A DNA stretch of 29,506 bases from NCBI GenBank assembly GCA_038061215.1, contig JBBTZV010000021.1, forward strand, positions 1-29,506, written 5' to 3'. Every line of letters begins with the position of its first letter. Position 1 is the stretch's first letter. The notes beneath the pieces are model-generated. The model ran no database searches, was not told the DNA's origin, and saw nothing but the letters and a program-made list of their open reading frames with translations. Shown here piece after piece: positions 1,366 to 29,160 of this stretch. Made by a program: the position numbers and the translations under genes. The stretch is from Patescibacteria group bacterium. GTDB lineage: Bacteria; Patescibacteriota; Minisyncoccia; UBA6257; UBA9933.

Positions 1366-2850
1366 TCACTTTACATAAAATTTCTTTTTTATCTCCTCCT
1401 CTGCCCCGCTCTCAAATTCATCTTTTTTTTCTTTCGCGTTCTTAGATAATTTTTCCAGCTTATCATCGGATAAATTACCAAACTCCTTGATTCTCAATGC
1501 TAAATACTTGCTGCTATTCTTGTCCGGCTCTTCAACCACTTCGTCAAGCAGAATTGACAGAATCCAACCGACTTTTGGGCCCGGCTCAATTTCTAAAATT
1601 TCCATTACGTCATTGCCGCTGACTTTCAACATTTTCGGAGAAAGCGGGTCGCGCTTCACTTTTTCAATCATAAAAAGCAAATGCCTCAATTTGTAAGGCA
1701 CGGCTTTCGGCACGCCGGAGCCGATTCTATCCGCTTCCCTTAATTTTATGAAATCTTCAACATTTTCCGGTCCAACGCGGCGCAGAAAACGCCGAACACC
1801 GGCTTCTGTCACTTCGCCCACATTGTAATAAAAAAGATGATAGCGGACAAGATGGACGACTTTTTCAATAAAAACTTTTGAAAAATGCAATCTATCCAAA
1901 GCTCGCGCCGCGATTTTCGCGCCAATTACTTCGTGATTGTAAAAAGTCGAATCCGGACCGTCTCCCGCCTTGGTTTCGGGCTTGCCGACATCATGAAGCA
2001 AAGCCGCCATTCTGATTTCCAAAGAATAATCTTTTTTTACGGCGTAATCCAAAGCGCGCAAATTATGTTCCCAAACCGTATAAATGTGGTGCTTGTTTTG
2101 GCCGACATTAATTCCCTCGCGCAACTCCGGCACAACATGACGAAGCAATCCCAAGTCCTCCAATGTTTGAACGCCTTTAACCGCGTTTTTTGTTGCCAAA
2201 ATTTTTTTAAACTCTTCGCAAATTCTTTCCTTAGCAATCATTTCCAGCAAATTGGCTTGTTTTCTAACGGCTTCGCTTGTTTTTTTCTCAATTTCAAAAT
2301 TTAATTCCGTCGCAAACCGCACAGCCCGCATCAATCGCAAAGCATCTTCGTTAAAACGTTCTTCGGGATTGCCGACAGTTTTAATAATTTTATTTTTAAT
2401 ATCTTTCTGACCGTTAAACGGGTCAATAATTTTTGAAAATTGAAAATTAGAAATTGAAAATTCCGCCGCGATGGCGTTTATTGTGAAGTCGCGGCGGGCA
2501 AGGTCTTCCTCAACCGTTTTGGCGAATTTAATTTCATCCGGATGCCGCTTATCGGTGTATTTTCCTTCCAGCCGAAAAGTGGTTATTTCAACGATTTTTA
2601 ATTTTGGGTTTTCGGAATCAGTTTTTACGGCAACAGTGCCAAATTTATTTTCATAAACGCTGTCCGGAAAAATTTTCTGAATTTCTTTTGGCTTAGCATT
2701 GGTTGTTATATCCCAATCTTTCGGTTCGCGCTCCATCAATAAATCGCGAACGCAACCGCCAACAAGATACGCCTGAAAATTTCCGCCAGTCGGCGGATTT
2801 TGAAGTTTTTTGGCAATCTCAATAATTTCTTCGGGAATATTGAATTTCAT
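1366..2850 (-). CDS. cca: class II CCA tRNA nucleotidyltransferase with HD domain
   Basis: Motifs GGCVRD..DWD, RRDFTINA, EDALRLMRAVRF and ERICEE; HD motif LLHDVGKP. No poly(A)-polymerase signature. Confidence 0.9.
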   Translation of the reverse strand: MKFNIPEEIIEIAKKLQNPPTGGNFQAYLVGGCVRDLLMEREPKDWDITTNAKPKEIQKIFPDSVYENKFGTVAVKTDSENPKLKIVEITTFRLEGKYTDKRHPDEIKFAKTVEEDLARRDFTINAIAAEFSISNFQFSKIIDPFNGQKDIKNKIIKTVGNPEERFNEDALRLMRAVRFATELNFEIEKKTSEAVRKQANLLEMIAKERICEEFKKILATKNAVKGVQTLEDLGLLRHVVPELREGINVGQNKHHIYTVWEHNLRALDYAVKKDYSLEIRMAALLHDVGKPETKAGDGPDSTFYNHEVIGAKIAARALDRLHFSKVFIEKVVHLVRYHLFYYNVGEVTEAGVRRFLRRVGPENVEDFIKLREADRIGSGVPKAVPYKLRHLLFMIEKVKRDPLSPKMLKVSGNDVMEILEIEPGPKVGWILSILLDEVVEEPDKNSSKYLALRIKEFGNLSDDKLEKLSKNAKEKKDEFESGAEEEIKKKFYVK

Positions 2851-2896
2851 TGAATTTAATTATAGACTAAATAACTAATAACTAAAAACTATTTTT

Positions 2897-2971
2897 GCTC
2901 TCGTAGTGAAATGGATATCACGACAGGCTTCGAACCTGTTATTGGGGGTTCGAATCCCTCCGAGAGCGCCA
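2897..2971 (+). tRNA. tRNA-Arg(UCG), CCA encoded
   Basis: GCTCTCG/CGAGAGC acceptor, ACAGG-CTTCGAA-CCTGT, ends GCCA. Confidence 0.95.
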
Positions 2972-2991
2972 ACCGAAAGCGCCGAAACTAA

Positions 2992-3064
2992 GCGCCCATA
3001 GCTCAGTTGGCAGAGCAGTCGCCTCTTAAGCGAACGGTCCCAGGTTCGACCCCTGGTGGGCGCA
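2992..3064 (+). tRNA. tRNA-Lys(CUU)
   Basis: GCGCCCA/TGGGCGC acceptor, anticodon loop CTCTTAA, T arm CCAGG-TTCGACC-CCTGG. Confidence 0.95.
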
Positions 3065-3091
3065 TAAAAATTATTTTTCATAAGGTCTACA

Positions 3092-3163
3092 GTCCTCGTG
3101 GTTCAATGGATAGAACACCGGCCTCCGAAGCTGAAGATAGAGGTTCAATTCCTCTCGAGGACA
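3092..3163 (+). tRNA. tRNA-Arg(CCG)
   Basis: GTCCTCG/CGAGGAC acceptor, anticodon loop CTCCGAA, T arm AGAGG-TTCAATT-CCTCT. Confidence 0.93.
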
Positions 3164-3205
3164 CAAAAATTGATTATTTTTGATAACTAATTAAAATTAA
3201 AAAAT

Positions 3206-3276
3206 GCGGGGTTAGTATAGTGGTAATACACCTCCTTGCCAAGGAGGAGCCGCGAGTTCGATTCCCGTACCCCGCT
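3206..3276 (+). tRNA. tRNA-Gly(GCC)
   Basis: GCGGGGT/ACCCCGC acceptor, U73, CCTCC-TTGCCAA-GGAGG. T stem GCGAG/CCCGT carries an A52.C62 mismatch. Confidence 0.94.
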
Positions 3277-3283
3277 TGTTTAT

Positions 3284-3309
3284 TGAAACTAAACTCCTTT
3301 TTATTCGTT
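3284..3309 (+). promoter_or_regulatory. putative ECF-sigma autoregulatory promoter
   Basis: TGAAAC-N16-CGTT directly before the ECF sigma start codon; resembles the B. subtilis SigW/SigM consensus TGAAAC-N16-CGT(A/C). Confidence 0.55.
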
Positions 3310-3313
3310 TCTT

Positions 3314-3850
3314 ATGATAGAAGAACAGCAAAAATTAATTAAGGAAGCGATTGCCGGAAAATCCGCGCCTTTTGGCTTGCTTTACGACCATTATCAGCCG
3401 ATTGTCTACCGATTTATCTACTTAAAAGTCAGCCATCGCGAAGAGGCCGAAGACCTAACCCATCAAGTTTTTTTGAGCGCCTGGCAGAATATTTCTGGAT
3501 TTAAAATCAAGAAAGAAGCGTCTTTTATAGGATGGCTTTATCAAATCGCCAGAAACAAAGTCATTGACCATTACCGGACAAAAAAACCGACCGTTGATAT
3601 TGACAATATCGCCGACCCGCCGGAAATTGGAAAATCCAACGAGGAAACGGCTGATTTCAGAATTGAAATTAAAATGGTTAAAAAGGCCATTCCCCTATTA
3701 AACGAAATAGAACAAGACGTGGTGATTATGAGATTCGTTGAAGATTTGACTTCAAAAGAAGTGGCGGAAATTTTAGAAAAATCAGAAGGAGCAATCAGAT
3801 TAATTCAACACAGAGCGATAAAGAAATTACAAAATATATTAAAACAATGA
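3314..3850 (+). CDS. ECF-family RNA polymerase sigma factor
   Basis: Region 2 (AEDLTHQVFLSAW, WLYQIARNKVIDHYR) and region 4 (EVAEILEKSEGAIRLIQHRAIKKL); 178 aa. Confidence 0.93.
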   Translation: MIEEQQKLIKEAIAGKSAPFGLLYDHYQPIVYRFIYLKVSHREEAEDLTHQVFLSAWQNISGFKIKKEASFIGWLYQIARNKVIDHYRTKKPTVDIDNIADPPEIGKSNEETADFRIEIKMVKKAIPLLNEIEQDVVIMRFVEDLTSKEVAEILEKSEGAIRLIQHRAIKKLQNILKQ

Positions 3851-4369: not shown

Positions 4370-4387
4370 ATTTTTTATAATAAATTA

Positions 4388-4743: not shown

Positions 4744-4771
4744 AAGTGTCAAGTGTCAGGTATCAGGTGTC
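4744..4771. repeat. intergenic 7-bp-period array
   Basis: AAGTGTC AAGTGTC AGGTATC AGGTGTC. Confidence 0.8.
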
Positions 4772-4776
4772 AATAA

Positions 4777-6366: not shown

Positions 6367-7923
6367 ATGTCAAAACGAACGGTAATCTTAATTGTTTTGG
6401 ACGGCTGGGGCATCGGGCCAAAAGACGCGTCAAACGCGATTTACGCGGCAGACCCAAAAAACATCAACCAGCTTAAAACCAATTTTCCTTCAGGCGCTTT
6501 GCAGGCCTCGGGAATCGCCGTCGGCCTTCCTTGGGGCGAAGAAGGCAACAGCGAAGTCGGGCATTTGAATATGGGCGCAGGTAAAGTAATTTACCAAAAT
6601 TATCCGAAAATCACTTTGGCGATTCGCGACGGCAGTTTTTTTGAAAATAAAATCTTGAAAGAAACTTTTGAGCACGCCAAAAAAAACGATTCAGCGGTTA
6701 ATTTAATAGGATTGCTGACCGAAGCCAATGTCCACGCGTCCCTTGAACATCTGGAGGCCTTAATTAAATTCAGCCAAGACGAAAACGCGCCTAAAATCAA
6801 TCTTCATTTGATTACCGACGGCCGCGACAGTCCGCCGCAAAGCGCTTTGAATTTATTAAAACGCATTCCTTTTTCCGAAAAAGTAAAATTAGCCAGTATT
6901 GCCGGCCGATATTACGCCATGGACCGCGACAAACTCTGGGACAGGACGCAAAAATATTATTCAACAATCACAGGCGAAGGAATTTTAATTGACAATCTTG
7001 AAAACCATTTCAATCAAACTTATCAAAAAGGATTAAATGACGAATATATTTTACCGATTTTATTCGGAACTGAAAAAAATTTCATTAAAGACAATGACGC
7101 GATTTTATTTTTCAATTTTCGCGAAGACCGGATGCGCCAGCTGGTTGAAACTTTTATCAATAAAAAATTCGCTCAATTCCCTGTTAAAAATTTTTCCAAT
7201 CTCCATATAACCGCGCTTATCGAATACGACAAGAATTTCAAGATGCCGGTTGCTTTTCCACCGGAAACTATTGACAATCCAATTGGCAAAATTCTGGCTG
7301 ATAGCGGCAAAAATCAATTAAGAATCGCAGAAACTGAAAAATACGCCCACATTACTTACTTTTTTAACGGCGAAAGAGAATCGCCTTTTGAAAACGAATA
7401 TCGGGTGCTGATTCCCTCAATAGCCGAAGTGCGCCATGACGCCCATCCGGAAATGAGAGCCAAAGAAATCGCCGACCGCGTCATAACGGCAATGGAAGAA
7501 GAAAGTTATGATTTTATATTGGTGAATTTAGCCAATGCCGATATGGTGGCGCATACCGGAAATTACGAAGCCACGATTTCCGCGATTAAAGCCGTTGACG
7601 AACAAATCAACAGAATTTCAAAAACTGCTTTGGAACAAAACGATATTTTAATCATCACTTCCGACCACGGCAACGCGGAGAGATTGTTTAACCCAAAAAC
7701 CGGCGAACCGGAAACGAAACACGACCCGAATCCGGTGCCGGTTTATCTGGTGGCGAATGAATTCAAGCGCGAAAGAAGTTTAAGGGAAATTGAGGATGCG
7801 GAATCCGCTCCCATCGGCCTTTTATCAGACATCGCTCCGACAATTCTGGAATTGATGAAAATCTCAAAACCGAAAGAAATGACCGGCCAAAGCCTCGTCA
7901 AATTTTTAATTTCAAATTATTGA
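6367..7923 (+). CDS. gpmI: 2,3-bisphosphoglycerate-independent phosphoglycerate mutase
   Basis: LDGWG, GNSEVGH, DGRD, GRYYAMDRD, AETEKYAHITYFFNG, NADMVAHTG, SDHGNAE. Confidence 0.97.
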   Translation: MSKRTVILIVLDGWGIGPKDASNAIYAADPKNINQLKTNFPSGALQASGIAVGLPWGEEGNSEVGHLNMGAGKVIYQNYPKITLAIRDGSFFENKILKETFEHAKKNDSAVNLIGLLTEANVHASLEHLEALIKFSQDENAPKINLHLITDGRDSPPQSALNLLKRIPFSEKVKLASIAGRYYAMDRDKLWDRTQKYYSTITGEGILIDNLENHFNQTYQKGLNDEYILPILFGTEKNFIKDNDAILFFNFREDRMRQLVETFINKKFAQFPVKNFSNLHITALIEYDKNFKMPVAFPPETIDNPIGKILADSGKNQLRIAETEKYAHITYFFNGERESPFENEYRVLIPSIAEVRHDAHPEMRAKEIADRVITAMEEESYDFILVNLANADMVAHTGNYEATISAIKAVDEQINRISKTALEQNDILIITSDHGNAERLFNPKTGEPETKHDPNPVPVYLVANEFKRERSLREIEDAESAPIGLLSDIAPTILELMKISKPKEMTGQSLVKFLISNY

Positions 7924-9148
7924 TTTTCAATAACCGTTCGTACTTCGCCAATCTTTCCGGATTTGCCGGAGCGCCGGCTTTTATCCCCCAAGCGCCGACT
8001 CCGACAGCCAAATCAGCAATAAAATCATCAAGTGTTTCCACGCTTCGATGAGAAACAATAGTTTGCCAATTATTTTCATAGGCCAGTTTTACGACTTTTA
8101 AAGTTTCGGTTAGAGTGCCAATTTGATTCGGTTTTATCAAAATCGCGTTGCCGGATTTTTGAGCAATGGCGGTTTTCAATCTTTCGGAGTTGGTAGTTGT
8201 CAAATCATCAGCGATAATTAAAATTTCTTTTTTATTCGCCGCTATCCTATTGGATAGCGCGGAAAAATCATCAAACGCCTCTTCGCAAAACGGATCTTCT
8301 ATTGAAATAATATTGTGAGTCTCTATTAATCTTAAATAATATTCCCTTAATTCATCGCTTGAATATTTTTTCCCGCCAATTAAATAATGGTCCTCTTTAA
8401 AAAACTGGGAAGCGGCGACATCCAAGCCGATTCTTAATGGATGTTTATATTTTTCTATAACTTCGGCAATACATTCAATGGCTTCTTCGTTGTTTTTGAA
8501 AGGCGCGCTATAACCCGCTTCATCGCCCAAAACCACATTTTCTTTGCCGAATTTTTCCCTTAAATAATCGCCTAATTTCCGATAAAAAATCTTCCCCAAA
8601 CTGAATCCCAAATTAAAATCATCGGCTTCCGGAATAACCTGAAATTCCTGAAAACTTAATTTACTTTCCTGATGAGCGGCATGCGCGCCGCCGTTGATGA
8701 CATTGAAAATTGGCCGCGGCCAATTTAACATTTGACCATTGACCTTTGACATTTGACTAATATATTCAAACAATTCTAATCCTTCAAATCTTGCTCTTAA
8801 TCTCGCCCAAGCCAAAGACAAGGCCAAAATCAAATTTCCGCCCAAATTGCTTTTAGCTTGCCCTGAGCTTGTCGAAGAGGTTCCGTCCAGCGCGATTAAA
8901 AAATTGTCTAAATCTTCTTGCGTTTCAATCCGCCCGCTGGCGGACGCAGCCAAAATCTGCGACTTTATTTCTTCAAATTTTTTAAGCGCTAATTTCGGCT
9001 CCAAAACAAACGCCTCGTGCGTTCCAACGCTTTTGCCGGCCGGCACGCTGGCTTTGGCTGAAAAATCTTCGCTTATTAATTCCGCTTCCAAAGTATCTTT
9101 GCCGCGGGAATCTTTAATTATTTTCAGGTTAGCATCAATAATTTTCAT
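7898..9148 (-). CDS. eno: enolase (divergent, catalytic residues retained)
   Basis: DSRG, NGGAHA, QEF, GDEAG, LDVAAS, SIEDP, ADDL, IKPNQIGTL, VSHRS, RLAKY. Its 3' end overlaps gpmI convergently by 26 bp. Confidence 0.93.
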   Translation of the reverse strand: MKIIDANLKIIKDSRGKDTLEAELISEDFSAKASVPAGKSVGTHEAFVLEPKLALKKFEEIKSQILAASASGRIETQEDLDNFLIALDGTSSTSSGQAKSNLGGNLILALSLAWARLRARFEGLELFEYISQMSKVNGQMLNWPRPIFNVINGGAHAAHQESKLSFQEFQVIPEADDFNLGFSLGKIFYRKLGDYLREKFGKENVVLGDEAGYSAPFKNNEEAIECIAEVIEKYKHPLRIGLDVAASQFFKEDHYLIGGKKYSSDELREYYLRLIETHNIISIEDPFCEEAFDDFSALSNRIAANKKEILIIADDLTTTNSERLKTAIAQKSGNAILIKPNQIGTLTETLKVVKLAYENNWQTIVSHRSVETLDDFIADLAVGVGAWGIKAGAPANPERLAKYERLLKINNLKLKI

Positions 9149-10336: not shown

Positions 10337-12795
10337 TTTATCTTTTTTTCTTTTTCGTAAACCGCCAAAGTGGTTTTAATAACCGTATCCGGATTTAAAG
10401 AAATGCTTTCGATTCCTTGTTCCACTAAAAATTCGGCAAAATCTTCGTAATCTGACGGCGCTTGGCCGCAAATGCCGATATATTTGTTTTTTTCTTTGCA
10501 TTTTTTAATGACTTCGCTAATCAATTTTTTGACTGATTCGTCTTTCTCATTGGTGATACTTCTAATCATTTCATTGCCGTCTCTGTCAATGCCAACGGTT
10601 AATTGCGTCAAATCATTTGAACCAATGCTCATCCCGTCAAAAATATCCAAAAATTCATCGGCTAAGATAACATTTGACGGTATCTCGCACATTACATAAA
10701 CTTTAAGCCCTTGTTCGCGGCTTAAGCCATTTTTCCTCATAATTTCCAAAACTTTTTTTCCTTCTTCTGGAGTGCGGCAAAAAGGAATCATTGCTTCCAC
10801 ATTATTCAAGCCCATTTCTTCGCGGACTTTTTTGACGGCTTTGACTTCCAATTCAAAGGCCGGCGCGAAATTCGGATGATAATATCTTGAAGCGCCGCGC
10901 CAACCAAGCATCGGATTTTCTTCTTGCGGTTCGTATAATTCGCCACCGATAAGCGAGCGATATTCATTAGTCTTAAAATCGGAAAACCTGACAATCACCG
11001 GATTGGGATAAAAAGCCGCGGCGATTTTAGCGATGCCATAGGCAAGTTTATCCACATAAAATTGAGTTTTATTTTTATAACCGATTATTTTTTTATTTAT
11101 TTGAGTTTTTAATTTTTTATTTTTTATTTTAAGTTTATCGTAATTAATCAGCGCCATCGGATGTATTCCAATGTCCGAAGCGATAATAAATTCTTCCCTC
11201 GCCAATCCCACGCCATCATTAGGCAAAAACGACTTTTCAAAAGCGGTTTCCGGAGTGGCGATATTGAGCATTATTTTTGTTTTTGTCCGCCAGCTGGCGG
11301 ATTGGAATTTTTTAACATTGTGTTCTATTATTTTAAATTCCAAATCGCCGTCATAAACAAATCCCTCGTTGCCGGTCGTGTCAACGGTTATTGTCCGACC
11401 GGTTTTAATTTTTTTGGTGGCGTTTCCGCTGCCGACAATGCAAGGTATGCCCAATTCGCGGCTCACTATCGCGGCGTGGCTTGTTCTTCCTCCTTTGTCC
11501 GTAATAATCGCCGAAGCCATTTTCATAATCGGCTCCCAATCGGGGTCGGTCATATCGGTAACTAAAATTTCTCCAGCCTTGAATTTGTTGATGTTTTTCG
11601 CGTCTAAAATCATCCGCGCCCTGCCAGAAGCAATTTTACTTCCCACCGAAGCGCCTTTGACTAAAACATTTGACCTTTGCCCTTTGACATCTGACAAAAT
11701 ATATTCTTTTATTTTTGAAAAATCGCGGCCCGCGTGAATTGTTTCCGGCCTTGCTTGAACAATGAACAGTTCGCCTGTTCGACCGTCTTTTGCCCATTCC
11801 AAATCCATTGGCGTCCATTTGCCGTTTTTGTTTGAATAATGCTCTTCAACCAAAACCCCCCATTTCGCCAACCGCAAAATTTCTTCATCTGATAAGGCAA
11901 AATTTTCCTTTTCTTTTTGCGAAGTTTTTATAATTTTCGTGTTTTTTACCGAAATCCCCCGGCCTTCCGAATAAACCATTTTTCTGTTTTTGACACCGAG
12001 TTTTTTATCAATAATCGGTTTATATTCCAATTCGCCCAATTTTTTTTTAAATATTAAAAATTCGTCCGGCGTCACTTCGCCTTGCACAATCATTTCGCCC
12101 AATCCCCAAGAGCCGTTTATCAAAACCGCGTCTCTAAAACCGGATTCGGTATCCAGAGTAAACATCACGCCGGAACATCCGAGATCTGAACGCACCATTT
12201 TTTGAACTCCGACTGAAAGCGCGACTTTAAAATGGTTAAAACCCTTGTCAACTCTGTAAGAAATCGCCCTGTCGGTGAAAAGCGAAGCCATTGCCGATTT
12301 CACAGATTTTAAAATTTCGCCGTCTCCGCGGATATTCAAATAAGTTTCATGTTCGCCGGCAAATGACGCGCCCGGCAAATCTTCGGCAGTCGCGCTGGAA
12401 CGCACCGCCACATCGGCATTTTTGCCGTATTCGTCTTCCATATTCCGATAAGCCGTCACTATTTCCTGCCTTAAATCGCTTGGAAATTCTGATTTTTTTA
12501 TCGCTTCCCTGATGACCTTGCCGCGCTTCGCCAAATCTTTTAAATTTTTCGTATTTAATTCTTTTAAAATTTCTTTAATAAATTTTTTTAAAGAAAATTG
12601 CTTGTTGTTTATTGTAAGTTGCGAATTTTTTAAAAAATATTTATACGCGCTGGCCGTCACTATAAATCCGCCGGGAATTTTCACTCCTTTCGGCGTCAAA
12701 TTTTGAATCATCTCGCCGAGAGAGGCGTTTTTCCCGCCCGCCTCGGAAACGTCTTTAATACCGACATCTTTAAGTTGTTTGATAAATGGCTTCAT
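10333..12795 (-). CDS. ppsA: phosphoenolpyruvate synthase (pyruvate, water dikinase)
   Basis: GGKNASLGEM, VRSSATAEDLP, GGRTSHAAIVSRELG, EENPMLGWRGASRY, SIGSNDLTQL, GICGQAPSD. Confidence 0.97.
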   Translation of the reverse strand: MKPFIKQLKDVGIKDVSEAGGKNASLGEMIQNLTPKGVKIPGGFIVTASAYKYFLKNSQLTINNKQFSLKKFIKEILKELNTKNLKDLAKRGKVIREAIKKSEFPSDLRQEIVTAYRNMEDEYGKNADVAVRSSATAEDLPGASFAGEHETYLNIRGDGEILKSVKSAMASLFTDRAISYRVDKGFNHFKVALSVGVQKMVRSDLGCSGVMFTLDTESGFRDAVLINGSWGLGEMIVQGEVTPDEFLIFKKKLGELEYKPIIDKKLGVKNRKMVYSEGRGISVKNTKIIKTSQKEKENFALSDEEILRLAKWGVLVEEHYSNKNGKWTPMDLEWAKDGRTGELFIVQARPETIHAGRDFSKIKEYILSDVKGQRSNVLVKGASVGSKIASGRARMILDAKNINKFKAGEILVTDMTDPDWEPIMKMASAIITDKGGRTSHAAIVSRELGIPCIVGSGNATKKIKTGRTITVDTTGNEGFVYDGDLEFKIIEHNVKKFQSASWRTKTKIMLNIATPETAFEKSFLPNDGVGLAREEFIIASDIGIHPMALINYDKLKIKNKKLKTQINKKIIGYKNKTQFYVDKLAYGIAKIAAAFYPNPVIVRFSDFKTNEYRSLIGGELYEPQEENPMLGWRGASRYYHPNFAPAFELEVKAVKKVREEMGLNNVEAMIPFCRTPEEGKKVLEIMRKNGLSREQGLKVYVMCEIPSNVILADEFLDIFDGMSIGSNDLTQLTVGIDRDGNEMIRSITNEKDESVKKLISEVIKKCKEKNKYIGICGQAPSDYEDFAEFLVEQGIESISLNPDTVIKTTLAVYEKEKKIK

Positions 12796-12804: not shown

Positions 12805-14181
12805 TTACTCATTTAACGAACTCAGAACAAGCATGAGGTCCGCCACATTAAAACATTTTTTTTCGGCGAAAATCAAATCGCCGGTTTTTTTGAAGAAATT
12901 GAAAGAATCGTGATTTTCTAAAAATTCTTTCGGTTTTAATTTTAATTTTTTTGCTTTTTCTAAAGTTAAAAAATCGCCAATCGCTCCGGCGGCTTCGGTA
13001 TTATCAAAACCATCAGACGCAAAAGACATTATTGCTAAATTTTGACATCTAAAACCTGACATCTGACATTTAACCAATGCGCCCAATACTGCTTCCATAT
13101 TTCTTCCTCCCCTCTCCGCCTTTATTTCATGTTTTTTCAGAGTAACTGTTGTTTCTCCGGCAGCAATTAAAGCTTCGCCCATCTTAACTTTTGCCGTCAT
13201 CGATAATAACGCCGCGCTTGCTTCTCCTTCAAGCGCCAAGGAATAAATTTTCGGCTTAAAACCCAATTCTTCGGCCTTACTCACCATTGCCATTACAGCA
13301 TCTTGATTGCAGGCAAATAAAATATTTTTTACATTTTTAAAATAATTTTCATACCCGGTAGTAGAACTGCGTTCACTACGGGGCTTCGCTTTCGGCGTTT
13401 CGTATAATTTAAATTTATCCGGATTAAACCCGTATTTTTTTAAAATTTTTTCCGCGTCTTTTTTCGCCGTTTTATCATAAACCGTCGGACCTGAAGCCAC
13501 ATTGGACAAATCATTGCCGCAAACATCAGAAACTATCAATGAAATAACCGTTGCCGGACAAGCCATTTTCGCCAAACCGCCGCCTTTAAATTCCGACAAA
13601 TGTTTTCTAACGGTATTCAGCTCATTTATATTCGCGCCTGCTCTCGTTAATTCTTTTATCGCCAGAATGGAATTTTTTAATTCTTCTTTTGAAGCGCAAG
13701 CCAAAGCCGAACCGCCGCCGCAAATAAAAGCAATCAATAAATCTTTTCCAGTTAAGCTTTTAACCAATTTAATGATTTCTTGAGTGGCTTTGATGTTTTG
13801 TTTTGAAGGCAAGGGATGAGTACCTACAAAAGTTTTGAGCTTATAAGCTTTTAAGCTTTTAAGCTTATTAACATCTAAAGCGATTCCACCGGTTAATTTT
13901 TTGCCTAAAATTTTTGCCGAAGCTGTAATTGCCAAAGCCGAACCCTTGCCTATTCCAACAATATAAATCCTTTCAAAATCATCAAGGTTGGTTTCTATTT
14001 CATTTTTCTTTTCGTCAAAAAAAGCCGTATGACCAATTTTTAATAAATTATCTTTTATCTTAATTCGTTCTGAAACAATTTTTTCTATATTAATGCCTTC
14101 ATAACCAGCTTCGGCAATTTTAAGCGCTTTTTTGCGAAATGAGTTTACGGCGAGATTTTTAAAATTAATTATATTTTTCAT
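12805..14181 (-). CDS. glycerate 2-kinase (TtuD/GckA type, DUF4147 + MOFRL)
   Basis: GIGKG, HPLP, ICGGGSAL, LNTVRKHLS.FKGGGLA, SDVCG.D...VASGPT, GGRN, SDGFD, NVADL. Confidence 0.92.
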   Translation of the reverse strand: MKNIINFKNLAVNSFRKKALKIAEAGYEGINIEKIVSERIKIKDNLLKIGHTAFFDEKKNEIETNLDDFERIYIVGIGKGSALAITASAKILGKKLTGGIALDVNKLKSLKAYKLKTFVGTHPLPSKQNIKATQEIIKLVKSLTGKDLLIAFICGGGSALACASKEELKNSILAIKELTRAGANINELNTVRKHLSEFKGGGLAKMACPATVISLIVSDVCGNDLSNVASGPTVYDKTAKKDAEKILKKYGFNPDKFKLYETPKAKPRSERSSTTGYENYFKNVKNILFACNQDAVMAMVSKAEELGFKPKIYSLALEGEASAALLSMTAKVKMGEALIAAGETTVTLKKHEIKAERGGRNMEAVLGALVKCQMSGFRCQNLAIMSFASDGFDNTEAAGAIGDFLTLEKAKKLKLKPKEFLENHDSFNFFKKTGDLIFAEKKCFNVADLMLVLSSLNE

Positions 14182-19347: not shown

Positions 19348-22300
19348 TTAACTTTTTTTAATCCTTAACCAGATTTTTGAACCGTCAATTTTGATTTCCG
19401 CTTCCGCGTCAAATTTGTCGGTTTTTGCAAGCTCAATAGTTTTAACTCCAATGTCTTTTTTAAGATTTTCCGTATTATTGCTTATCAGCCGCTTGAAATA
19501 ATCATCAGCTTCAATATGCAAAACCCCCTTGTCTTTTGGAGTATAACCGGCTTCTTTTCTTAAATCCTGGATAACGCGCGTCAATTCGCGCAATTGCCCT
19601 TCGGCTTTTAATTCCGGCGTGATATTTATGTCTAATTCAACATCGCTCGCGATATTTTTATCAAAAATAATTTCTTTAACGTTAATTTCGTCTTTAATCA
19701 AATCTAATAATTCTTTATTGCTCTTGATGCCTGATACTTGATGCTTGATACTTATTTTTGCGAGCGGCTGACGCACTCTTATCCCCGCTTTTTGCCGCGC
19801 TTCAAGCCCCAAAGAAACAATGCGCCTGATTTCTCTCATTTGCTCCAGGATTTTTTCTTCTTTCCTTAAAAATACTTTTTTAATTTTCTGCCAAAAAAGC
19901 GTAGCCGGCCAATTTTCCAAATGAACAGAATCTTGGCATTTGACATCTGACATTTGACATCTGACATTTTGATAAATTTTTTCCGCAATAAACGGCATAA
20001 ACGGCGCGATTATTTTGGAAAATTCCAACAGAACATATCGCGTTGTCGCAATGGCGCTTTGCTTATCCTCGCTTTCTTCTTTAAATCTGCCTCTTGAACG
20101 CCGAATGTACCAAGTTGACAAATCGTCAATAAAATCAAAAACCGGCTGGCTGGCTTTATCAAGTTCATAATTTTCCATTGCCTCTGATATTTCTTGAATC
20201 AACTGGTTAAGCCGCGCCGAAATCCATAAATCTAAAACATTTCTTGATGCTTGATCCGCCAACTGGCGGATGATACTTGATACTTTTTCATCCGCGTAAA
20301 GCTCATAAAACTTATAAACATTCCACAGCCGCAAAATCACTTTTTTATAAACCTCGTCAACGCCTTTTTCGGAAAAATTAAAGTCTTCAGCGCGAACAAC
20401 ATGTGAAGATAAAAGATAAAGCCGCAAAGCGTCGGCGCCGTATTTATTGACTACTTCAACCGGATCGGGATAATTTTTCAATCTTTTGCTCATTTTCTGG
20501 CCGTCTTCAGCCAAAATAATGCCGTTGACAATCACGTTTTTGTAAGCCGGTTTATTGAATAAAGCGGTTGATAAAACAAGCAAAGTATAAAACCAGCCGC
20601 GGGTCTGATCCAATCCTTCGGCGATAAATTCCGCCGGAAAATTTTTTTCAAATTCTTTTTTATTTTCAAAAGGATAATGCGCTTGGCCGTAGGGCATGGC
20701 GCCGGATTCAAACCAGCAATCAAAAACATCGGCAACCCGCTTTAATTCATTGCCGCAATCGCATTGAAGATTGATTTCATCAATGTATGGTTTATGCAAA
20801 TCAAGTTCGTAATTTTTATTGTGAGGAATCGGAATAAAATCAAGTTCCAGAAGCTCGGCGGTTTTAATGAAGTCATTTCCTTTTTCTTGTTTCATTCTTG
20901 CCGATTTTTTAGCGTCAGCGCCGATTGCCGCGCCAAACATCAGCCAAATCGAATATTCATGAGATATAATTAAAATATTTTTTTCGGAATATTTATTTTC
21001 AATATCATATAAAAATTCTGCCATTCGATTTTTCAACTCGGTTAAATTTTCTCCTTCGGGCGGAATTTTGTAAAATTTTTCTTCCAGCGAAGAAAAATAA
21101 TTGTGGTATTCTTCATGAGTTTTGTTGTCAAAAACGCCGGTGTTCACCTCTCTTATTCTTTCGTCAAATATTATTTTGTCTTGGGCATAGCCAAGCGTTT
21201 TAGCGACAATTTCCGCCGTTTGTTTGGTTCTTAAAAAATCGGAAGCAAAAATAATATCGATGTTTTTTAATTTTTCAGCGGCTTTTTCGGCTTCTTTCTT
21301 TCCTTTTTCAGTTAATGAATGATTGCGGCTGGTTTCTAATTTTGAACTGACTTTATTTTCGGCATTATGAATCGCTTCAGCATGCCGCATCGCAAAATAA
21401 TGATTTCCTGATTTTTTAGCGTATTTTTTCAACTCTTCAAGCGAACCAATTACTTTAATTTTTTCGCATTTATCGCAACGCCAAACCGGCAATGGCGCTC
21501 CCCAAAATCTGCTTCTTGAAATTGCCCAATCGCGAATGCCTTCAAGCCATTTGCCGAAACGCCCTTCTTTGAGATGCTCCGGAATCCATTTAATTTTCTT
21601 ATTGTTTCCGATAAGTTTATCTTTAATCGCCAGGACTTTCACGAACCAAGAAGCGCTGGCGTAATTCAAAAGCGGCGTATCGCACCGCCAGCAATGAGGA
21701 TATGGATGAATAATTTTCTGCTTGCTGAAAAGATTATTTTGATTGGCAAGAAATTTGATTATTTCAATATCTGCTTTTTGATGTTCTGCTTTCGGCTTTA
21801 CCAGCATGCCGGCAAAATCTTTAACTTCCGGTTTGAATCTGCCGTCAATTGAAACATGCTGAATAAAAGGCAAATTATGCTTCTGCGCCAAATTCATGTC
21901 GTCTTCACCGAACGCCGGCGCAATATGAACAACACCCGTGCCTTCTTCGGTTAAAACAAAATCTCCAGCGTAAATTTTCCATCCGTTATCGCGGTTTTTT
22001 AAATTTTTATCCGTTGAATAATAATTGAATAACGGCTTGTATTTTTTGCCAATTAAATCTTTGCCCTCAATTTCTTTTTTTACTTCATGCTCCTTATCTT
22101 TAAATACATCTCTAACTCTATCTTTGGCAACAATATATTTATTATCGTCTCCTTTAATACTTACTATTTGATACTTAATGTTCTGATTGACCGCCAATGC
22201 CGCGTTTCCCGGCAAAGTCCACGGCGTTGTCGTCCATGCCAAAACATAAGTATTCGGTTCATCAACAAGTTCAAATTTCGCCATCACGGAAATATCCGTA

Positions 22301-23449: not shown

Positions 23450-25084
23450 TCACATTTTATCAGGCAAACCAATTCCTAAAAGCCCAAAAAGGTTTTTGAA
23501 GATTATTAAAGTCGCCCGAATCAAAACCAAACGAGCCAGCATCAAGTTTTTTTCTTCACCCCCGCCTTCGCCAAGGCTTCGGCGAGCAGGAATTATTCTT
23601 TCTTTTTCGTAAAAATTATGAAACTCCCGCGCCAAATCTAAAGCATAACGCGCCAAAATTTGAGGATTGTAATTTTTCGCCGCCTCTTCAACGGCTTCCG
23701 GAAACCGCGCCATTTGCCGCATTAAATTTATGTCTTCTGCTGTATTTAATTTTTGGACATCCGATGTCCTAAGGACATCGGATGTCCTTATATTGACTTT
23801 TTTGATGATGCCTTGGCATCTGACTGCCGCATACTGCGCGTAATAAACCGGATTTTTCATTGAACGTTCTTTCGCCAAATCCAAATCAAAATCCATATGC
23901 GTTTCCGGAGAATGCGTCAAAAAGAAAAATCTGGCGGCATCAGGTTTAACTTCTTTAATCAAATCTTCAAAAGTTACGAATTCGCCGGTTCTTTTAGACA
24001 TTTTTACTTCTTTGCCGGCACTCATCAATCTTACAGCTTGAGTAACAATAACTTTTAATTCTTTAAGGCCTATGATTTTCGCCGCCGCCTGAATTCTTTT
24101 GACATAACCATGATGGTCCGGACCCAAAATCATTATTTTAGAATTAAAGCCGCGCGATTTTGTTTCCAAAAAATGGCCGGCGTCAGCCAAAAAATAAGTC
24201 GGAAATTTGTCTTGGGTTATCAAAACTCTGTCTTTTTCATCATTGAAATCGGTTGTCTTAAGCCATAAAGCCCCGTCTTTTTCATAAATCAATTTTTTCG
24301 CTTTGAAAATTTTTAAAACTTTATCAATGTAGCTTTTTTTATGAATATGTTTATCCTCCGATGTCCAGCGGTCAAATTTTATCTTCGCTTCTTTTTCAAC
24401 GGCTTTCTTAATTTCTTTCAAAAAATCAGCGGCGGCCAATTGACCGAGTTTTAACGGATTATTTTGATATTTTTTGGAAATCGCTTTGTGTTTTTTCGCC
24501 CATTCTTTCACATATCCGCCTTTATAAAAATTTTCCTCGTTTTTGATGAAACCGTTAGTAGCTAAAATTGACTTGCCGAGCGTTAAAATCTGATTGCCGG
24601 TGTCATTGACATAATATTCCCGCTCCACTTTATAACCGCAAAATTCCAAGATATTGCTTAAAACGTCGCCCATAAAACCGCCCCGGCCATTGGCAAGAGT
24701 CAAAGGCCCTGTGGGATTGGCGGAGATAAACTCTATCTGAACTTTTGACATCTGACCTTTGACAGCTGACTTGCCGTAATTTTGTTTTTTTTTCAAAATT
24801 TCTCTTAATTCGTCTTGTAAAACTTTTTCCGAAATCCAAAAATTAATAAACCCCGGCGGCGCGACTTCTATCTTAGTAAAAAGTGAATAGTGATTAGTGA
24901 TTAGTTTTGTTTTAATTTCTTCCGCAATTTCTAACGGACTCTTCTTCAATTTTTTCGCCAACTTCAAAGCAACATTCGTTGAATAATGCCCGAATTGCTC
25001 GTTTTCCGGAACAAAAATTTCAATTTCAATCGGTTCTTTAATAACGGCTTTTTTAAGATAATTTAAAATTTTTGTCTTAATCAT
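23450..25084 (-). CDS. argS: arginine-tRNA ligase
   Basis: FGHYSTN, GFINF, EFISANPTGPL, YYVNDTGNQ, KMSKRTG, NPVYYAQYA, FHNFY. Confidence 0.96.
   Translation of the reverse strand: MIKTKILNYLKKAVIKEPIEIEIFVPENEQFGHYSTNVALKLAKKLKKSPLEIAEEIKTKLITNHYSLFTKIEVAPPGFINFWISEKVLQDELREILKKKQNYGKSAVKGQMSKVQIEFISANPTGPLTLANGRGGFMGDVLSNILEFCGYKVEREYYVNDTGNQILTLGKSILATNGFIKNEENFYKGGYVKEWAKKHKAISKKYQNNPLKLGQLAAADFLKEIKKAVEKEAKIKFDRWTSEDKHIHKKSYIDKVLKIFKAKKLIYEKDGALWLKTTDFNDEKDRVLITQDKFPTYFLADAGHFLETKSRGFNSKIMILGPDHHGYVKRIQAAAKIIGLKELKVIVTQAVRLMSAGKEVKMSKRTGEFVTFEDLIKEVKPDAARFFFLTHSPETHMDFDLDLAKERSMKNPVYYAQYAAVRCQGIIKKVNIRTSDVLRTSDVQKLNTAEDINLMRQMARFPEAVEEAAKNYNPQILARYALDLAREFHNFYEKERIIPARRSLGEGGGEEKNLMLARLVLIRATLIIFKNLFGLLGIGLPDKM
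23755..23787. repeat. 33-bp inverted repeat in frame in argS
   Basis: GGACATCCGATGTCCT-A-AGGACATCGGATGTCC; encodes RTSDVLRTSDV. Confidence 0.9.
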
Positions 25085-26458: not shown

Positions 26459-26459
26459 T

Positions 26460-26953: not shown

Positions 26954-26981
26954 AAAGAACCGCGAATGCAATGCGGTTCTT
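26953..26981. terminator. bidirectional terminator between rplT and the NUDIX gene
   Basis: AAAGAACCGC-N9-GCGGTTCTTT. Confidence 0.75.
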
Positions 26982-27412
26982 TATTTAATAAGAAGCCCGT
27001 GGACTTGCGCCAAAACCCTTTGACTGTCTTTATATTTTAAAAGAATTTTCATCGCTTCTTTATAGGTGAACCAGCCGTATCCATCATGTTCGTAAGAAAT
27101 CCTGATTTGCGGTTTTTTTGTTTCCGCCAAATAAAAAATAACAACTTTGAAAACTTTTTGTTTTTTAATTCCATGGCCGCGCCAAAAAACGAATTTTTCG
27201 TAGGCCTTAAAACGCTGGTCTATTTTAAGTTCGTTGCCGCTAAGGCCGGTTTCCTCTCTTGTCTCGCGCAAAGCGGCTTGAAAACTTTTTTCTTCCGCTT
27301 CAATTTTGCCTTTCGGAAAATTCCAATATCCGCCGCCGTGATAAAGCAAAAGGAATTTTAAGCCTTCTTTGGTTTTACGATAAATAATGATGCCGGCGGA
27401 TATTTCTCTCAT
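26981..27412 (-). CDS. NUDIX hydrolase (Ap4A-hydrolase-like); likely start MREISAG at 27412
   Basis: SAGIIIYR, W.FPKGKIE..E...AALRETREETGL (NUDIX box), EH..Y.W. Substrate assignment is tentative. Confidence 0.88.
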   Translation of the reverse strand: MREISAGIIIYRKTKEGLKFLLLYHGGGYWNFPKGKIEAEEKSFQAALRETREETGLSGNELKIDQRFKAYEKFVFWRGHGIKKQKVFKVVIFYLAETKKPQIRISYEHDGYGWFTYKEAMKILLKYKDSQRVLAQVHGLLIK

Positions 27413-27417
27413 TAAGT

Positions 27418-29160
27418 TTATTTTAACATTTTTAACATTTTTTCCACTGGCCAACAATTGATAATGTCCTCTTTTTCCGCCCAGCCGCGGCGAGCTTGAA
27501 AAACGCCGTATTCCATAAAACTCATTTGCTCTTTTTGATGGGCATCTGCATTGATAACCATTTTCACGCCTATTTCTTTGGCTTTTTTGATGTTTTCGTC
27601 GTTCAAATCAAGCCTGTAAGGATTGGCGTTGATTTCCAAAATCGTTCCGGTCTCTTTGGCGACTTTCAGAATTTTAGCGAAATCAATTTCATATTCGTCC
27701 CTTTGCTTCAAAATCCGGCCGGTTGGATGGGAAATAATGTCAACATTCGGATTTTCCATCGCCTTAATGATTCTTTCGGTCATTTTTTCTTTTGTCATTT
27801 TCATCTGCGAATGAACGCCGGCGATCACGTAATCAAGTTTCGCCAGCGCTTCGTCCTTTATGTCAATGGAGCCGTCCGCCATTATATTCGCCTCGCAACC
27901 GTGTAATACACGACATCTGACATCTGACATCTGACATTTGACATTAATTTTATCAATTTCTTTTCTTTGCTCTGCCAATTGTTTTTCGTTTATGCCGTGT
28001 TCAATCGCCAAAAATTTCGTATGGTCGGAAATACCGATATATTCATAACCGAGCGCGAGCGCCTCTTCCGCCATTTGCTCAATCAATCTTTTCCCTGCTC
28101 CCCAATGCGAATGGCAATGCAAATCTCCTTTAATATCTTTTAATTCAATAAGTTCCGGCAGTCCCTTCGACGAGCTCATGGCAAGTTCTATTTCGCCGGT
28201 ATTTTCCCGAAGCTCCGGCGGAATCCATTCCAGCCCCAATTTTTCATAAATTTCTTCTTCGTTTTCACCGGCAATCATTTTCGCTCCGCGAAACAAACCG
28301 TATTCCGAAAGTTTCAATCCTTTTTCAATCGCTATTTTCCGTAAAACTATATTGTGCTCTTTGGAGCCGGTAAAGTATTGAAGCGCCGCGCCGTAAGATT
28401 TCCGCGGCACCACGCGGATATCCATATCATATCCGTCTTCAAAACGGACCGATGTTTTGGTTTTGCCCTTGCCCCAAATTTTGACGACTCCCGGAAGCGA
28501 AACGAAAAAATCCATCACTTTTTCCGGCTCGTCGGAAATTGCCAAAAAATCAACGTCGCCGAGCATTTCTTTACGTCGGCGGACCGAACCGCAGGCGACC
28601 ACTTTTTCCACGCCTTTGATTCTTCTTAATCTTTCTTCAATTTCGCCAACAAACGGCAGAATTTCACCGAGCAAAAATTTGCCCTTGTCTCTTTTTAAAA
28701 ATTTAATGCCTTCCAGAATGTTTTTTTCCGTTTTTTCGCCGAAGCCGAATAAAGGCGCGATTTTGTGAGCCCTGGCCGCGGCCTCCAAATCATCAAGGTT
28801 TTTAATTTTTAATTTTTGGTAAAGAATTTTTATTTTTCTCGGGCCAATGCCTTCCACCGCCGCCAATTCCTCTATATTCACTGGAATTTTTTTCTTTAAT
28901 TGCCGGTGTTCTTTAATTTTTCCAGTTTTTATATATTCAATTATTTTCTCGGCAATGCCTTGGCCAACGCCCGGAATGTTTTTCAAACCGCCAATGTCTT
29001 GTTTTTTATAAATTTCATCAGCGCCTTCCTGTAAGGTTTCCAAACTCAAAGCCGCTTTTTCATACGCCTGCGACTTAAAAGAACCCGGGGTTTCGCCCCC
29101 TTCCATTTCAAAATAAAGAGCAATTTCATGAAAGATTTTAGATAGTCCTTGATTGAACAT
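27418..29160 (-). CDS. polX: DNA polymerase X with C-terminal PHP domain
   Basis: HhH motifs (IPGVGQGIA, VEGIGPRK), GSVRR...GDVD, DIRVV, YFTGSKEHN, PPELRE; PHP motifs DLHCHS, SDH, HPTGR, DAH. Confidence 0.94.
   Translation of the reverse strand: MFNQGLSKIFHEIALYFEMEGGETPGSFKSQAYEKAALSLETLQEGADEIYKKQDIGGLKNIPGVGQGIAEKIIEYIKTGKIKEHRQLKKKIPVNIEELAAVEGIGPRKIKILYQKLKIKNLDDLEAAARAHKIAPLFGFGEKTEKNILEGIKFLKRDKGKFLLGEILPFVGEIEERLRRIKGVEKVVACGSVRRRKEMLGDVDFLAISDEPEKVMDFFVSLPGVVKIWGKGKTKTSVRFEDGYDMDIRVVPRKSYGAALQYFTGSKEHNIVLRKIAIEKGLKLSEYGLFRGAKMIAGENEEEIYEKLGLEWIPPELRENTGEIELAMSSSKGLPELIELKDIKGDLHCHSHWGAGKRLIEQMAEEALALGYEYIGISDHTKFLAIEHGINEKQLAEQRKEIDKINVKCQMSDVRCRVLHGCEANIMADGSIDIKDEALAKLDYVIAGVHSQMKMTKEKMTERIIKAMENPNVDIISHPTGRILKQRDEYEIDFAKILKVAKETGTILEINANPYRLDLNDENIKKAKEIGVKMVINADAHQKEQMSFMEYGVFQARRGWAEKEDIINCWPVEKMLKMLK

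Follow-up and report, generated by a model that had tools for sequence, protein, structure and literature searches.

Heptanucleotide tandem arrays across a Patescibacteria-like family, with dispersed units matching the inverted arms of S23p cassettes

How does one short unit come to stand in tandem in unrelated housekeeping genes, and how do these genes tolerate it? The question is raised by a stretch of 29,506 nucleotides (the window), contig 21 of 42 in the 392-kb, 86% complete assembly of a groundwater bacterium (genome G000). Its arrays are given below with their TRF calls or their self-matches at an offset of 7, or of 8 for the site at 13836.

2433..2462, minus strand: cca, in frame; sense AATTTTC (antisense TGAAAAT), about 4.3 copies, peptide FSISNFQFS; TRF, 17/21 self-matches.
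2870..2891, no strand: intergenic, immediately upstream of cca, AATAACT x3.1; TRF, ORF map.
4744..4773, plus strand: intergenic, RGTGTCA type, downstream of rny; TRF, 18/21 self-matches.
7904..7931, no strand: overlapping ends of gpmI and eno, degenerate, the weakest site listed; 12/21 self-matches, TRF period 14-15.
8723..8760, minus strand: enolase, in frame, residues 130-142, SQMSKVNGQML; sense units GTCAAAT, GTCAAAG and GTCAATG; TRF 8723-8757.
11664..11698, minus strand: ppsA, in frame, residues 366-378, SDVKGQRSNV, NNNGTCA type; 19/28 self-matches, TRF 11669-11688.
13043..13077, minus strand: glycerate kinase-like gene, in frame, VKCQMSGFRCQ; RATGTCA units, one of them decayed; TRF 13043-13069.
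13833..13871, minus strand: same gene, period 8, in frame; plus strand TTTTAAGC, 4.8 copies; TRF, 21/24 self-matches at offset 8.
19723..19753, minus strand: ileS, in frame, IKHQVSGIK; sense AAGTATC/AAGCATC; TRF periods 7 and 14 (period-14 substructure).
19934..19969, minus strand: ileS, in frame, NVRCQMSDVKCQ; AATGTCA and GATGTCA alternate; TRF 19937-19967, period 14 at 100%.
22155..22182, minus strand: ileS, weak, decayed AAGTATC type, IKYQIVSIK; 13/21 self-matches, no TRF call.
24735..24773, minus strand: argS, in frame, degenerate NNNGTCA, SAVKGQMSKV; TRF period 14, 24735-24770.
24882..24905, minus strand: argS, in frame, LITNHYS; sense AATCACT (plus strand AGTGATT); TRF, 94% matches.
27911..27945, minus strand: polX, in frame, NVKCQMSDVRC, RATGTCA x4.7, the cleanest array of the window; TRF 27912-27944, 96% matches, 26/28 self-matches.

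The self-matches of the thirteen sites flagged by the first-pass annotation were ranked against every equal-length stretch. The period excess is borne out at all thirteen (twelve of period 7, one of period 8); ten rank in the top 0.9% or better, and the lowest are 7904 (top 1.8%) and 22155 and 24746 (each 13/21, top 1.2%). Over the G000 genome TRF returns, at 3.5 copies or more, 101 rows of period 7 against 13 of period 6 and 17 of period 8. Our own scan finds 50 period-7 arrays with a score of at least 14, against none in ten codon-shuffled genomes; at the same threshold there are none at periods 4-6, six at period 8 and two at period 9. The excess is family-wide, since 33 relatives (230 kb) give 71 rows of period 7 against 14 of period 6 and 13 of period 8. 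The units are AT-rich, lack G-tracts and bear stop triplets, and the array edges are ragged, with neither target-site duplication nor fixed ends. Of 115 arrays, 74 lie in frame within protein-coding genes, many of them essential, and intergenic density is five times the genic one. Pfam agrees with the gene names first assigned, and the peptides said to recur in unrelated proteins (VKCQMSDVRC, VKGQMSKV and others) do so. Arrays had been placed in nearly every large gene, which overstates their extent: among genes of at least 400 residues, 7 of 11 in the window and 23 of 105 in the whole genome carry one.

Seven and three have no common factor, so that a stop-free unit yields one 7-residue periodic peptide in every frame. 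Among 46 coding arrays with a unit free of sense stops, 39 have an antisense stop (random coding 7-mers: 25.6%), and in all 42 NNNGTCA-type coding arrays of G000 and of G030, a genome of another genus, the sense strand is the stop-free one, which bears out the claim that stops are kept off the coding strand. Units with a sense stop are kept in genes only where the in-frame copy is mutated; this, the stop-free sense strand and the fivefold intergenic density support selection as a filter of frame and orientation. Intergenic arrays have stops on both strands in 28 of 37 cases, against 17.7% expected. The array at 4744 is, as first described, opposite to local transcription: its plus-strand unit lies between two minus-strand genes, and the local transcript thus bears the TGA strand. 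Selection would purge any gene-breaking array; within genes, arrays would last only where the sense strand is the stop-free one and the site is a permissive loop of a housekeeping protein, and between genes the transcribed strand would be the stop-bearing, ATG-free one. The stop and orientation argument has already been published for TAACTGA repeats (PMC4679880).

In each genome one or two unit variants are amplified to dozens of loci. For RATGTCA there are about 20 unlinked loci in G000; G030 has about 23. The pattern (ATGTCAR)3 matches G000 27 times and G030 30 times (reversed-pattern controls: 0-1); across 400 genomes of the phylum it is rare. (ATACTAR)3 has 52 matches in G000 and at most three in any other genome, and (TGGAATT)3 has none in G000 but 42 in the relative G061, spread over 13 contigs or more. 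Several unit families coexist per genome, and related genomes differ widely in their units.

About one third of the coding arrays are common to another genus, and these change all their units in parallel; two thirds are not shared with the next genus. Others are insertions of 4-13 residues at places where orthologues show no visible seed; most of these gains lack polarisation by an outgroup and could be losses in the other lineage. Gapless alignment to orthologues, which the first-pass annotation had taken to speak against its account, is frequent, at eno, argS, ileS and polX, and tells in part against that account; it arises because the orthologues there carry arrays at matching positions. 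The ileS array at 19723 is matched in G030 by an orthologous one (91% nucleotide identity, gapless), the polX array likewise (92%; none in G023), the argS array at 24735 is identical to G030 at 59 of 60 nucleotides, and the ppsA array has a near-identical orthologue in G030, while four of its residues are missing from G023. In the ileS array at 19934 all G030 units read RGTGTCA where G000 has RATGTCA, a concerted difference between the two orthologous arrays, and G023 is short by exactly seven residues; at 22155 no periodicity was found in orthologues. At the cca site G030 has a longer array of another unit, and G023 has no array and is two residues shorter. The array at 13043 is part-conserved in G030 and G023 with unchanged length.

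A new observation is that loops of enolase, ArgRS and glycerate kinase host arrays with genome-dependent units. The enolase array lies in the inter-domain linker, which is five residues shorter in the solved enolase 2PA6; net length is unchanged relative to the closest orthologues, and at least 8 out of 30 orthologues, besides G061 and G005, carry period-7 arrays of other units in this loop. The argS loop at 24882 carries AGAATTA, ATAACTG or GTCAGAT arrays in other genomes, again with unchanged length. The period-8 unit at 13833 is the TAGCTTT/CTAAAAG heptamer plus one base, and the matching loop of G030 has a five-unit NNNGTCA heptamer array.

Also new is that the dispersed units match the inverted arms of S23p/IVP (PF05635) cassettes of the same genome. 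Inverted arrays lie 20-60 nt from PF05635 genes in G000, G005, G009, G019, G023, G030 (two cassettes) and G061, while in G002 the flanks are period-8 arrays and G032 has a different unit on either side of the gene. The arm units are the dominant dispersed units in G000, G030, G023 and G061, and the enolase loop, of RATGTCA type in G000, has in G061 AATTCCA, the complement of that genome's cassette arm. Cassettes on G000 contig 29 and G030 contig 7 are about 99% identical in arms and ORF, their syntenic flanks only about 77%, and the arms differ in length by 22 and 35 nt; at least one cassette, arms included, is thus far younger than its flanking genes and recently exchanged or mobile. In a decayed G030 cassette the right arm forms the in-frame leader of a pilin-like gene. 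PF05635 reaches eight copies in these tiny genomes, and its count follows array density (rho 0.54, p 0.001, uncorrected for relatedness and on about 4-9 kb per genome). Against a special link, S23p has no known catalytic activity, the G000 assembly (86% complete) yielded no cassette with RATGTCA arms, TAGCCAC, the arm unit of G019, has more matches in G009 than in G019, and the ordinary genes rplS and rnpA are likewise flanked by arrays; cassette arms could merely mirror arrays that fill any spacer of the host genome.

The arrays belong to a known class of heptanucleotide repeats, here spread across a Patescibacteria-like family. We put at about an even chance the fuller reading that they are STRR or long-SSR-type heptamers, linked to cassettes, copied from array to array and then filtered by selection. 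STRR (short tandemly repeated repetitive) heptamers of heterocystous cyanobacteria and the general surplus of heptamers in prokaryotic long SSRs (Mrazek and colleagues 2007, cited in PMC4692102) share with them tandem 7-nt units, several families per genome, a predominance of period 7 over its neighbours and, in that account, an unexplained function; those repeats are described as mainly intergenic, whereas here most lie in frame in genes, the hosts are Patescibacteria-like genomes of about 0.4-0.6 Mb and the units are AT-rich with stop triplets. The TAACTGA direct repeats that MacGregor (2015, PMC4679880) described in marine Beggiatoaceae, in cyanobacteria and in some Bacteroidetes likewise have a "forward" strand with stops in three frames, its copies at ORF ends or between genes, and a translatable "reverse" strand with copies within ORFs. 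Their horizontal spread is suspected and their mechanism not known; they are mostly intergenic, with few ORF copies, chiefly at protein termini, and no reported link to flanked cassettes, unlike the arrays here, which occupy internal loops of housekeeping enzymes and share their units with the arms of S23p cassettes. The GGGAATC and GGGGAYT heptamers that Rehm et al. (2015, PMC4692102) reported from Xanthomonas and Nostoc also form hundreds of arrays of about four units, some in convergent, hairpin-capable inverted pairs, and vary in length and sequence at the same intergenic sites among close relatives, but are G-rich, quadruplex-forming and intergenic. The 23S rRNA intervening sequences of Coxiella burnetii (PMC4990558) encode an S23p ORF, a small PF05635 four-helix bundle, between complementary flanks and are regarded as selfish; the present cassettes differ in lying between protein genes with heptamer arrays as flanks.

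A further parallel emerges from the arrays themselves, which are ragged, non-palindromic stretches of 21-40 nt. Rickettsia palindromic elements are in-frame selfish DNA that adds a peptide at tolerant sites of unrelated housekeeping proteins; in contrast, they are palindromic, about 100-150 bp long and have defined ends.

The strongest alternative, which we consider possible but unlikely, is slippage and selection alone: the replicative polymerase of the lineage would prefer 7-nt slips and any tolerated 7-mer would expand in place, with neither copying between loci nor a link to cassettes. Slippage by 7 nt was proposed by Mrazek and colleagues, as cited in PMC4692102 and PMC4679880. It accords with a family-wide excess made up of very diverse units, with unrelated units in identical permissive loops, with ragged ends devoid of element-like termini and with arm lengths that shift in multiples of about 7 nt. 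It does not account for the few units that dominate dozens of unlinked loci and vary from genome to genome, for insertions of dominant units where orthologues have no seed, or for dominant units being those of cassette arms. Moreover, the units are more closely related to each other than random or letter-shuffled 7-mers: 74 one-mismatch links join them, and none of 200 shuffles gave more than 62. The first-pass claim that local slippage alone does not explain the shared unit is thus upheld by its 20 or so and 23 or so unlinked loci and by the seedless insertions.

It is improbable that the arrays are DNA or RNA sites for a multimeric protein (S23p or other), selected for regulation, termination or RNA stability, with coding copies as tolerated by-products or also in use. 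Such sites would fit the solo intergenic RGTGTCA-family arrays of G000 and G030, whose transcript sense is the stop strand in six of six, the solo copies of G061, five of five in one orientation, the strong hairpins of inverted pairs at gene ends, the usual length of four to five units and the high nucleotide conservation of some coding arrays between genera. Orthologous arrays, however, show no significantly higher conservation than the remainder of the gene around them (0.77 vs 0.73, p 0.34), unrelated units occupy one loop among related genomes and two thirds of coding arrays are missing from the next genus.

Selection of the 7-residue periodic peptides (e.g. VKCQMSD), or phase variation by slippage, appears very doubtful. 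In ArgRS five genera share VKGQMSKV, which directly precedes the conserved segment IEFISANPT (G032 has a perfect (GGTCAAA)4 at this site), and each unit gives its peptide in any frame; yet loops of relatives hold unrelated peptides and the same unit families fill intergenic spacers. For phase variation the hosts are essential single-copy enzymes in which a 7-nt step would be lethal, and no 7-, 14- or 21-nt variants were found between assembled contigs of four metagenomes from two studies, although contigs hide rare variants; contigs of four runs span the ileS array at 19934 without gaps, and other samples differ in ppsA by SNPs at 11680/11681 (TGCCCTT to TGACCTT or TGATCTT).

Template-directed addition of repeats, whether reverse transcriptase or an enzyme akin to telomerase does it, is the strict form of the first-pass proposal of repeat addition plus selection, of which the selection part stands. 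It is scarcely credible: it would explain one unit at many unlinked sites, and weak PF05635 matches adjoin reverse transcriptase genes in some relatives, PF05635 proteins being related to the DGR accessory protein Avd (PMC10053308), but no reverse transcriptase was found in the array-richest genomes (G000, G030, G061, G006), density is unrelated to its count (rho 0.06), and units are of several families per genome and differ between relatives. PolX, proposed with it as a gene-content marker, is also present in array-poor G023 and does not discriminate.

Under the preferred reading of cassette-linked heptamers, new arrays would be copied from existing ones, a step that we infer. The likeliest routes would be that arrays act on each other through template switching or misaligned repair, or that cassette arms stay behind or are taken up by adjacent genes. 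Copying of this kind would keep the 7-nt register with no need for a reverse transcriptase. Once fixed, arrays would be inherited, internally homogenised and sometimes overwritten by another unit type.

Period-7 arrays were found with Tandem Repeats Finder (TRF) at almost all of the 13 sites flagged in the window by the first-pass annotation, with the units described there visible in the sequence, and its 8-bp analogue corresponds to a period-8 array at 13833-13871. Each site was ranked by self-match at offset 7 (offset 8 for the site at 13836) against all window positions of equal length; ten of the 13 fell in the top 0.9% or better and the weaker sites at 7904, 22155 and 24746 in the top 1.2-1.8%. 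The assembly of the source genome (G000; 392 kb, 42 contigs, 86% complete), in which the window is contig 21, contains 101 TRF rows of at least 3.5 copies with period 7, against 13 with period 6 and 17 with period 8. A genome-wide autocorrelation scan returned 50 period-7 arrays versus 0 in ten codon-shuffled genomes, and at other periods 0 (periods 4-6), six (period 8) and two (period 9); in 33 relatives there were 71 period-7 rows versus 14 and 13 at the neighbouring periods. With tandem 7-nt units, at least three copies and a genome-wide period-7 excess, the arrays belong to the class of short tandemly repeated repetitive heptamers (STRR), or long SSR, and 115 merged arrays of at least three head-to-tail copies are present in G000. 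The claim that nearly every large gene carries one is too strong, as a TRF array is present in seven of the eleven window genes of at least 400 amino acids and in 23 of 105 genome-wide. An assembly artefact was rejected, since the arrays reappear in the contigs of 8 runs (two studies) and 33 relatives carry them too; an alternative genetic code with TGA as sense was also rejected, long open reading frames being intact under table 11.

Array density between genes, at 1.03 per kb, is five times that in coding sequence (0.21 per kb); 74 of the 115 nevertheless lie in coding sequence, since this makes up 90% of the genome. Sense-strand units of coding arrays are mostly RATGTCA or AAGTATC, and intergenic units mostly ATACTAR, CTAAAAG and similar ones, in up to 11 copies. 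One long (ATACTAG)n array (contig C22:5033-5225) is broken by a scaffold gap of 100 N, and its true length exceeds the assembled one. Array ends are ragged and show neither the defined termini nor the terminal inverted repeats or target-site duplications of RPE-like and MITE-like elements: around 43 NNNGTCA arrays the flanks gave no conserved sequence and scattered boundary phases, and for RATGTCA arrays a search for a constant start phase, flank conservation or target-site duplications was negative.

As 7 and 3 have no common factor, a strand bearing a stop triplet stops all three frames within three units, and a stop-free unit encodes the identical seven-residue periodic peptide in any frame. 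The stop-strand bias described for the window extends to the genome: an antisense stop triplet is found in 39 of the 46 coding arrays with a stop-free sense unit, versus 25.6% of random coding 7-mers, and stops on both strands in 28 of 37 intergenic arrays (17.7% expected), counts which describe array families and not numbers of events because arrays are not independent events. The stop-free strand is the sense strand in 42 of 42 NNNGTCA-type coding arrays of G000 and of G030, a member of another genus of the same family. All six solo intergenic arrays of the NNNGTCA family are oppositely oriented relative to the neighbouring genes, among them the array at 4744, for which this had been noticed in the window. 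On these counts selection filters the arrays for strand and frame, as had been proposed. Both this class of repeat and the stop-strand logic had been described before (PMC4692102, PMC4679880), the latter as an argument about TAACTGA repeats (MacGregor 2015, PMC4679880). In neither of these two papers did we find heptamer arrays reported in frame across many essential genes.

The same protein loops are used recurrently, as seen in enolase and ArgRS loci fetched from 33 genomes of the same family and in 396 kb of G030 and 241 kb of the array-poor relative G023. The enolase array lies in the linker joining the N-terminal domain and the barrel, where a solved enolase is 5 residues shorter; the length of this loop is constant in the family, and at least eight of 30 orthologues carry in it period-7 arrays with different units (also G061 and G005). 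Both ArgRS arrays behave likewise, the same loops carrying different units in relatives; the ArgRS peptide VKGQMSKV is common to five genera, and at its site the array of G032 consists of four perfect units. In the glycerate kinase-like gene the period-8 array of G000 corresponds to a heptamer array in G030.

The expectation that orthologues would reveal net in-frame insertions held in part. Matches in G030 span 39 coding arrays of G000; at 13 of them the expectation failed, a co-located array being aligned without gaps, and in two of these 13 every unit has changed alike (RATGTCA versus RGTGTCA), which is concerted evolution of inherited arrays. At 12 or more sites the expectation was borne out by net insertions of 4 to 13 residues relative to G030 or G023, with neither an array nor an obvious seed in the orthologue, and the array at C22:3932 is missing from both comparison genomes. 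Presence/absence polymorphism at orthologous sites in the form of net in-frame insertions is thus observed, as in RPE-like and MITE-like elements. Hypermutability of coding arrays was not seen, nucleotide identity to G030 being 0.77 in arrays versus 0.73 in the rest of the gene (p 0.34).

Across the family the period is constant and the unit is free, and individual genomes have amplified units of their own. The sharing of one unit by unlinked sites, first remarked in the window, is found genome-wide: (ATGTCAR)3 with one mismatch has 27 matches in G000 and 30 in G030, a few in 12 other relatives and 0-1 for the reversed control, and exact matches are rare among 400 genomes of the phylum. (ATACTAR)3 has 52 matches in G000 and at most 3 in other genomes; (TGGAATT)3 has no match in G000, 19 in G006 and 42 in G061, where they are spread over at least 13 contigs. 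G030 shares the unit families of G000, and G023 shows a weaker period-7 excess with other units. Single-linkage clustering of units was discarded, as it put 45 of 52 in one cluster but random 7-mers chain up to 43-47; the sole usable clustering result is the number of one-mismatch links between units, 74 versus at most 62 in shuffles.

Two more heptamer features were recorded. In G116, an unrelated genome of the phylum sample, 24 matches to the reversed control pattern represent its own amplified family. Directly 3' of the enolase stop of G006 (contig C48; fetched locus L026:1377-1507) inverted eight-unit arrays AAATTCC and AATTTGG with an 18-nt spacer form a terminator-like hairpin built solely of repeats.

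Local slippage alone would account for the period and for the diversity of units across the family, but not for the one or two dominant units per genome at unlinked sites, an objection which the first-pass annotation had raised from the shared unit in the window. Phase variation, or a function at the protein level, is disfavoured by the host genes, the missing length variants and the intergenic copies. Contingency loci switch frame by copy-number polymorphism and are located in surface or host-interaction genes or promoters; the window arrays reside in cca, eno, ppsA, ileS, argS, polX and a glycerate kinase-like gene, names which Pfam confirmed. In contigs of four groundwater metagenomes (two studies) spanning five arrays there were no array length variants and no listed 7-, 14- or 21-nt indels, although contigs hide rare variants and low-frequency variation could be missed in them; the only array-internal variants were substitutions in the ppsA array. 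The template-directed repeat addition first suggested is disfavoured in its reverse transcriptase (RT) form, since the RT gene expected of a diversity-generating retroelement, retron or telomerase-like element was not found (no PF00078 match in G000, 86% complete, G030, 98% complete, G006 or G061) and RT matches do not follow array density in the enolase and ArgRS loci of 33 relatives (rho 0.06, uncorrected for relatedness); PolX was rejected as a discriminator because array-poor G023 has it too.

Beside the arrays discussed so far, the window contains the following features.
14914-16764, one 616-aa open reading frame combining an EamA-type transporter domain (aa 3-135) with a glycoside-hydrolase-like domain (Glyco_hydro_42 match, aa 344-444).
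16820-16854, two tandem TCCGCC-N3-GGCGGA hairpins, coding, about 60-90 nt before the stop of the 16761-18074 open reading frame.
20245-20284, in ileS, a 16-nt hairpin TCCGCC-N4-GGCGGA within an AAGTATC array, in frame; one permissive site common to two micro-repeat classes.
20835-21410, in ileS (aa 504-672), a histidine-phosphatase domain (Pfam His_Phos_1, E 7e-30) splitting the halves of the catalytic domain.
23755-23787, in argS, an in-frame 33-nt palindrome built of the commonest heptamer's core and the complement of that core (GGACATC and GATGTCC), encoding RTSDVLRTSDV; it is the inverted form of a heptamer array within a gene, and the enclosing 43 nt (23750-23792) fold at -28.8 kcal/mol.
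At the 16820-16854 hairpins, where dozens of unrelated contigs end, word depth in all four metagenomes rises to 386-964 from about 10-50 in the vicinity, so the TCCGCC-N3-GGCGGA hairpin must be very abundant in these communities.

Outside the window, G000 has one gene for the small four-helix-bundle protein S23p/IVP (PF05635; C29:591-902, E 8.7e-37), whose flanking arms are inverted (GTATYTA)n and (TARATAC)n arrays of the family of the commonest G000 intergenic arrays. PF05635 genes are present in 29 of 38 family genomes, up to eight in each, and the gene has inverted heptamer arrays on both sides, at a distance of 20-60 nt, in G000, G005, G009, G019, G023, G030 (two) and G061, giving eight cassettes in seven genomes; in G002 the gene is flanked by an inverted period-8 pair, and in G032 the arrays on its two sides have different units. 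The cassettes have the organisation of S23p/IVP hairpin cassettes, a PF05635 open reading frame with complementary flanks able to pair around it. Those of G000 and G030 lie between protein-coding genes in conserved synteny and not in a 23S rRNA helix.

The arm unit differs by genome and in G000, G030, G023 and G061 matches the units dominant there. In G061 it is the unit amplified genome-wide and found in the enolase loop, in G023 (ATGAATY) it equals the commonest units on a different contig, and of the G030 cassettes one has TGACAWT and GTCAGAT arms, of the coding-array family, and the other GTATCTA arms. A counter-example is the arm unit of G019, with more copies in G009 than in G019. The region syntenic to the RATGTCA-armed G030 cassette lies outside the 86%-complete G000 assembly. 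The cassettes at G000 C29 and G030 C7 are syntenic, and their nucleotide identity is about 99% across arms and open reading frame versus about 77% in the flanks, so that the cassette is much younger than its surroundings and has been exchanged or is mobile. The two copies differ by four substitutions and one frameshifting indel, and their arms by 22 and 35 nt; arm length thus changes fast. The cassette at G030 C3:85824-86170 (fetched locus L077; arms TGACAWT and GTCAGAT) is decayed, and its PF05635 gene is truncated. Its right arm forms the in-frame leader of a gene whose product begins like a type IV pilin (GFSLLELIIYIAIFG), which shows one way in which an arm can become coding sequence.

Among the 33 relatives, the density of arrays at the enolase and ArgRS loci correlates positively with the number of PF05635 matches (rho 0.54, p 0.001) and with strong matches only (rho 0.41), both values being uncorrected for relatedness. 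The link to the cassette could be passive, since arrays also lie beside ordinary genes, rplS and rnpA for example. Weak PF05635 matches 200-600 nt upstream of RT genes in G003, G008, G009, G015, G021 and G025 fit Avd-RT pairs of diversity-generating retroelements and differ from the S23p genes with strong scores and flanking arrays.

The dominant units and their identity with cassette arms suggest that arrays may be copied from existing arrays, and S23p may take part in the copying. A wider reading, which we consider unlikely, is that the S23p/IVP cassettes are the autonomous members of a mobile-element family, with arms recognised by an S23p multimer and copied independently of RT, and that the heptamer excess of many bacteria, including in-frame peptides in essential enzymes, would be their debris and non-autonomous progeny.

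In bacteria, knowledge of heptamer repeats goes back to 1990 and that of their general excess to 2007; we know of no mechanism for either. A literature search, at the level of listings, found no link of S23p/IVP to heptamer repeats or cassette arms. The family offers an unusually clean test bed, with tiny genomes and genome-specific units which make copies traceable, and arrays within essential proteins record the sites tolerating extra peptide. It also provides a candidate partner gene: array density rises with its copy number, and its cassette is mobile or exchanged as one piece. If this link is causal, the widespread PF05635 family would gain a function outside diversity-generating retroelements, and a recurrent source of loop insertions in candidate-phyla-radiation proteins would be explained; otherwise the data still show selection alone shaping the strand and frame of a non-triplet repeat.
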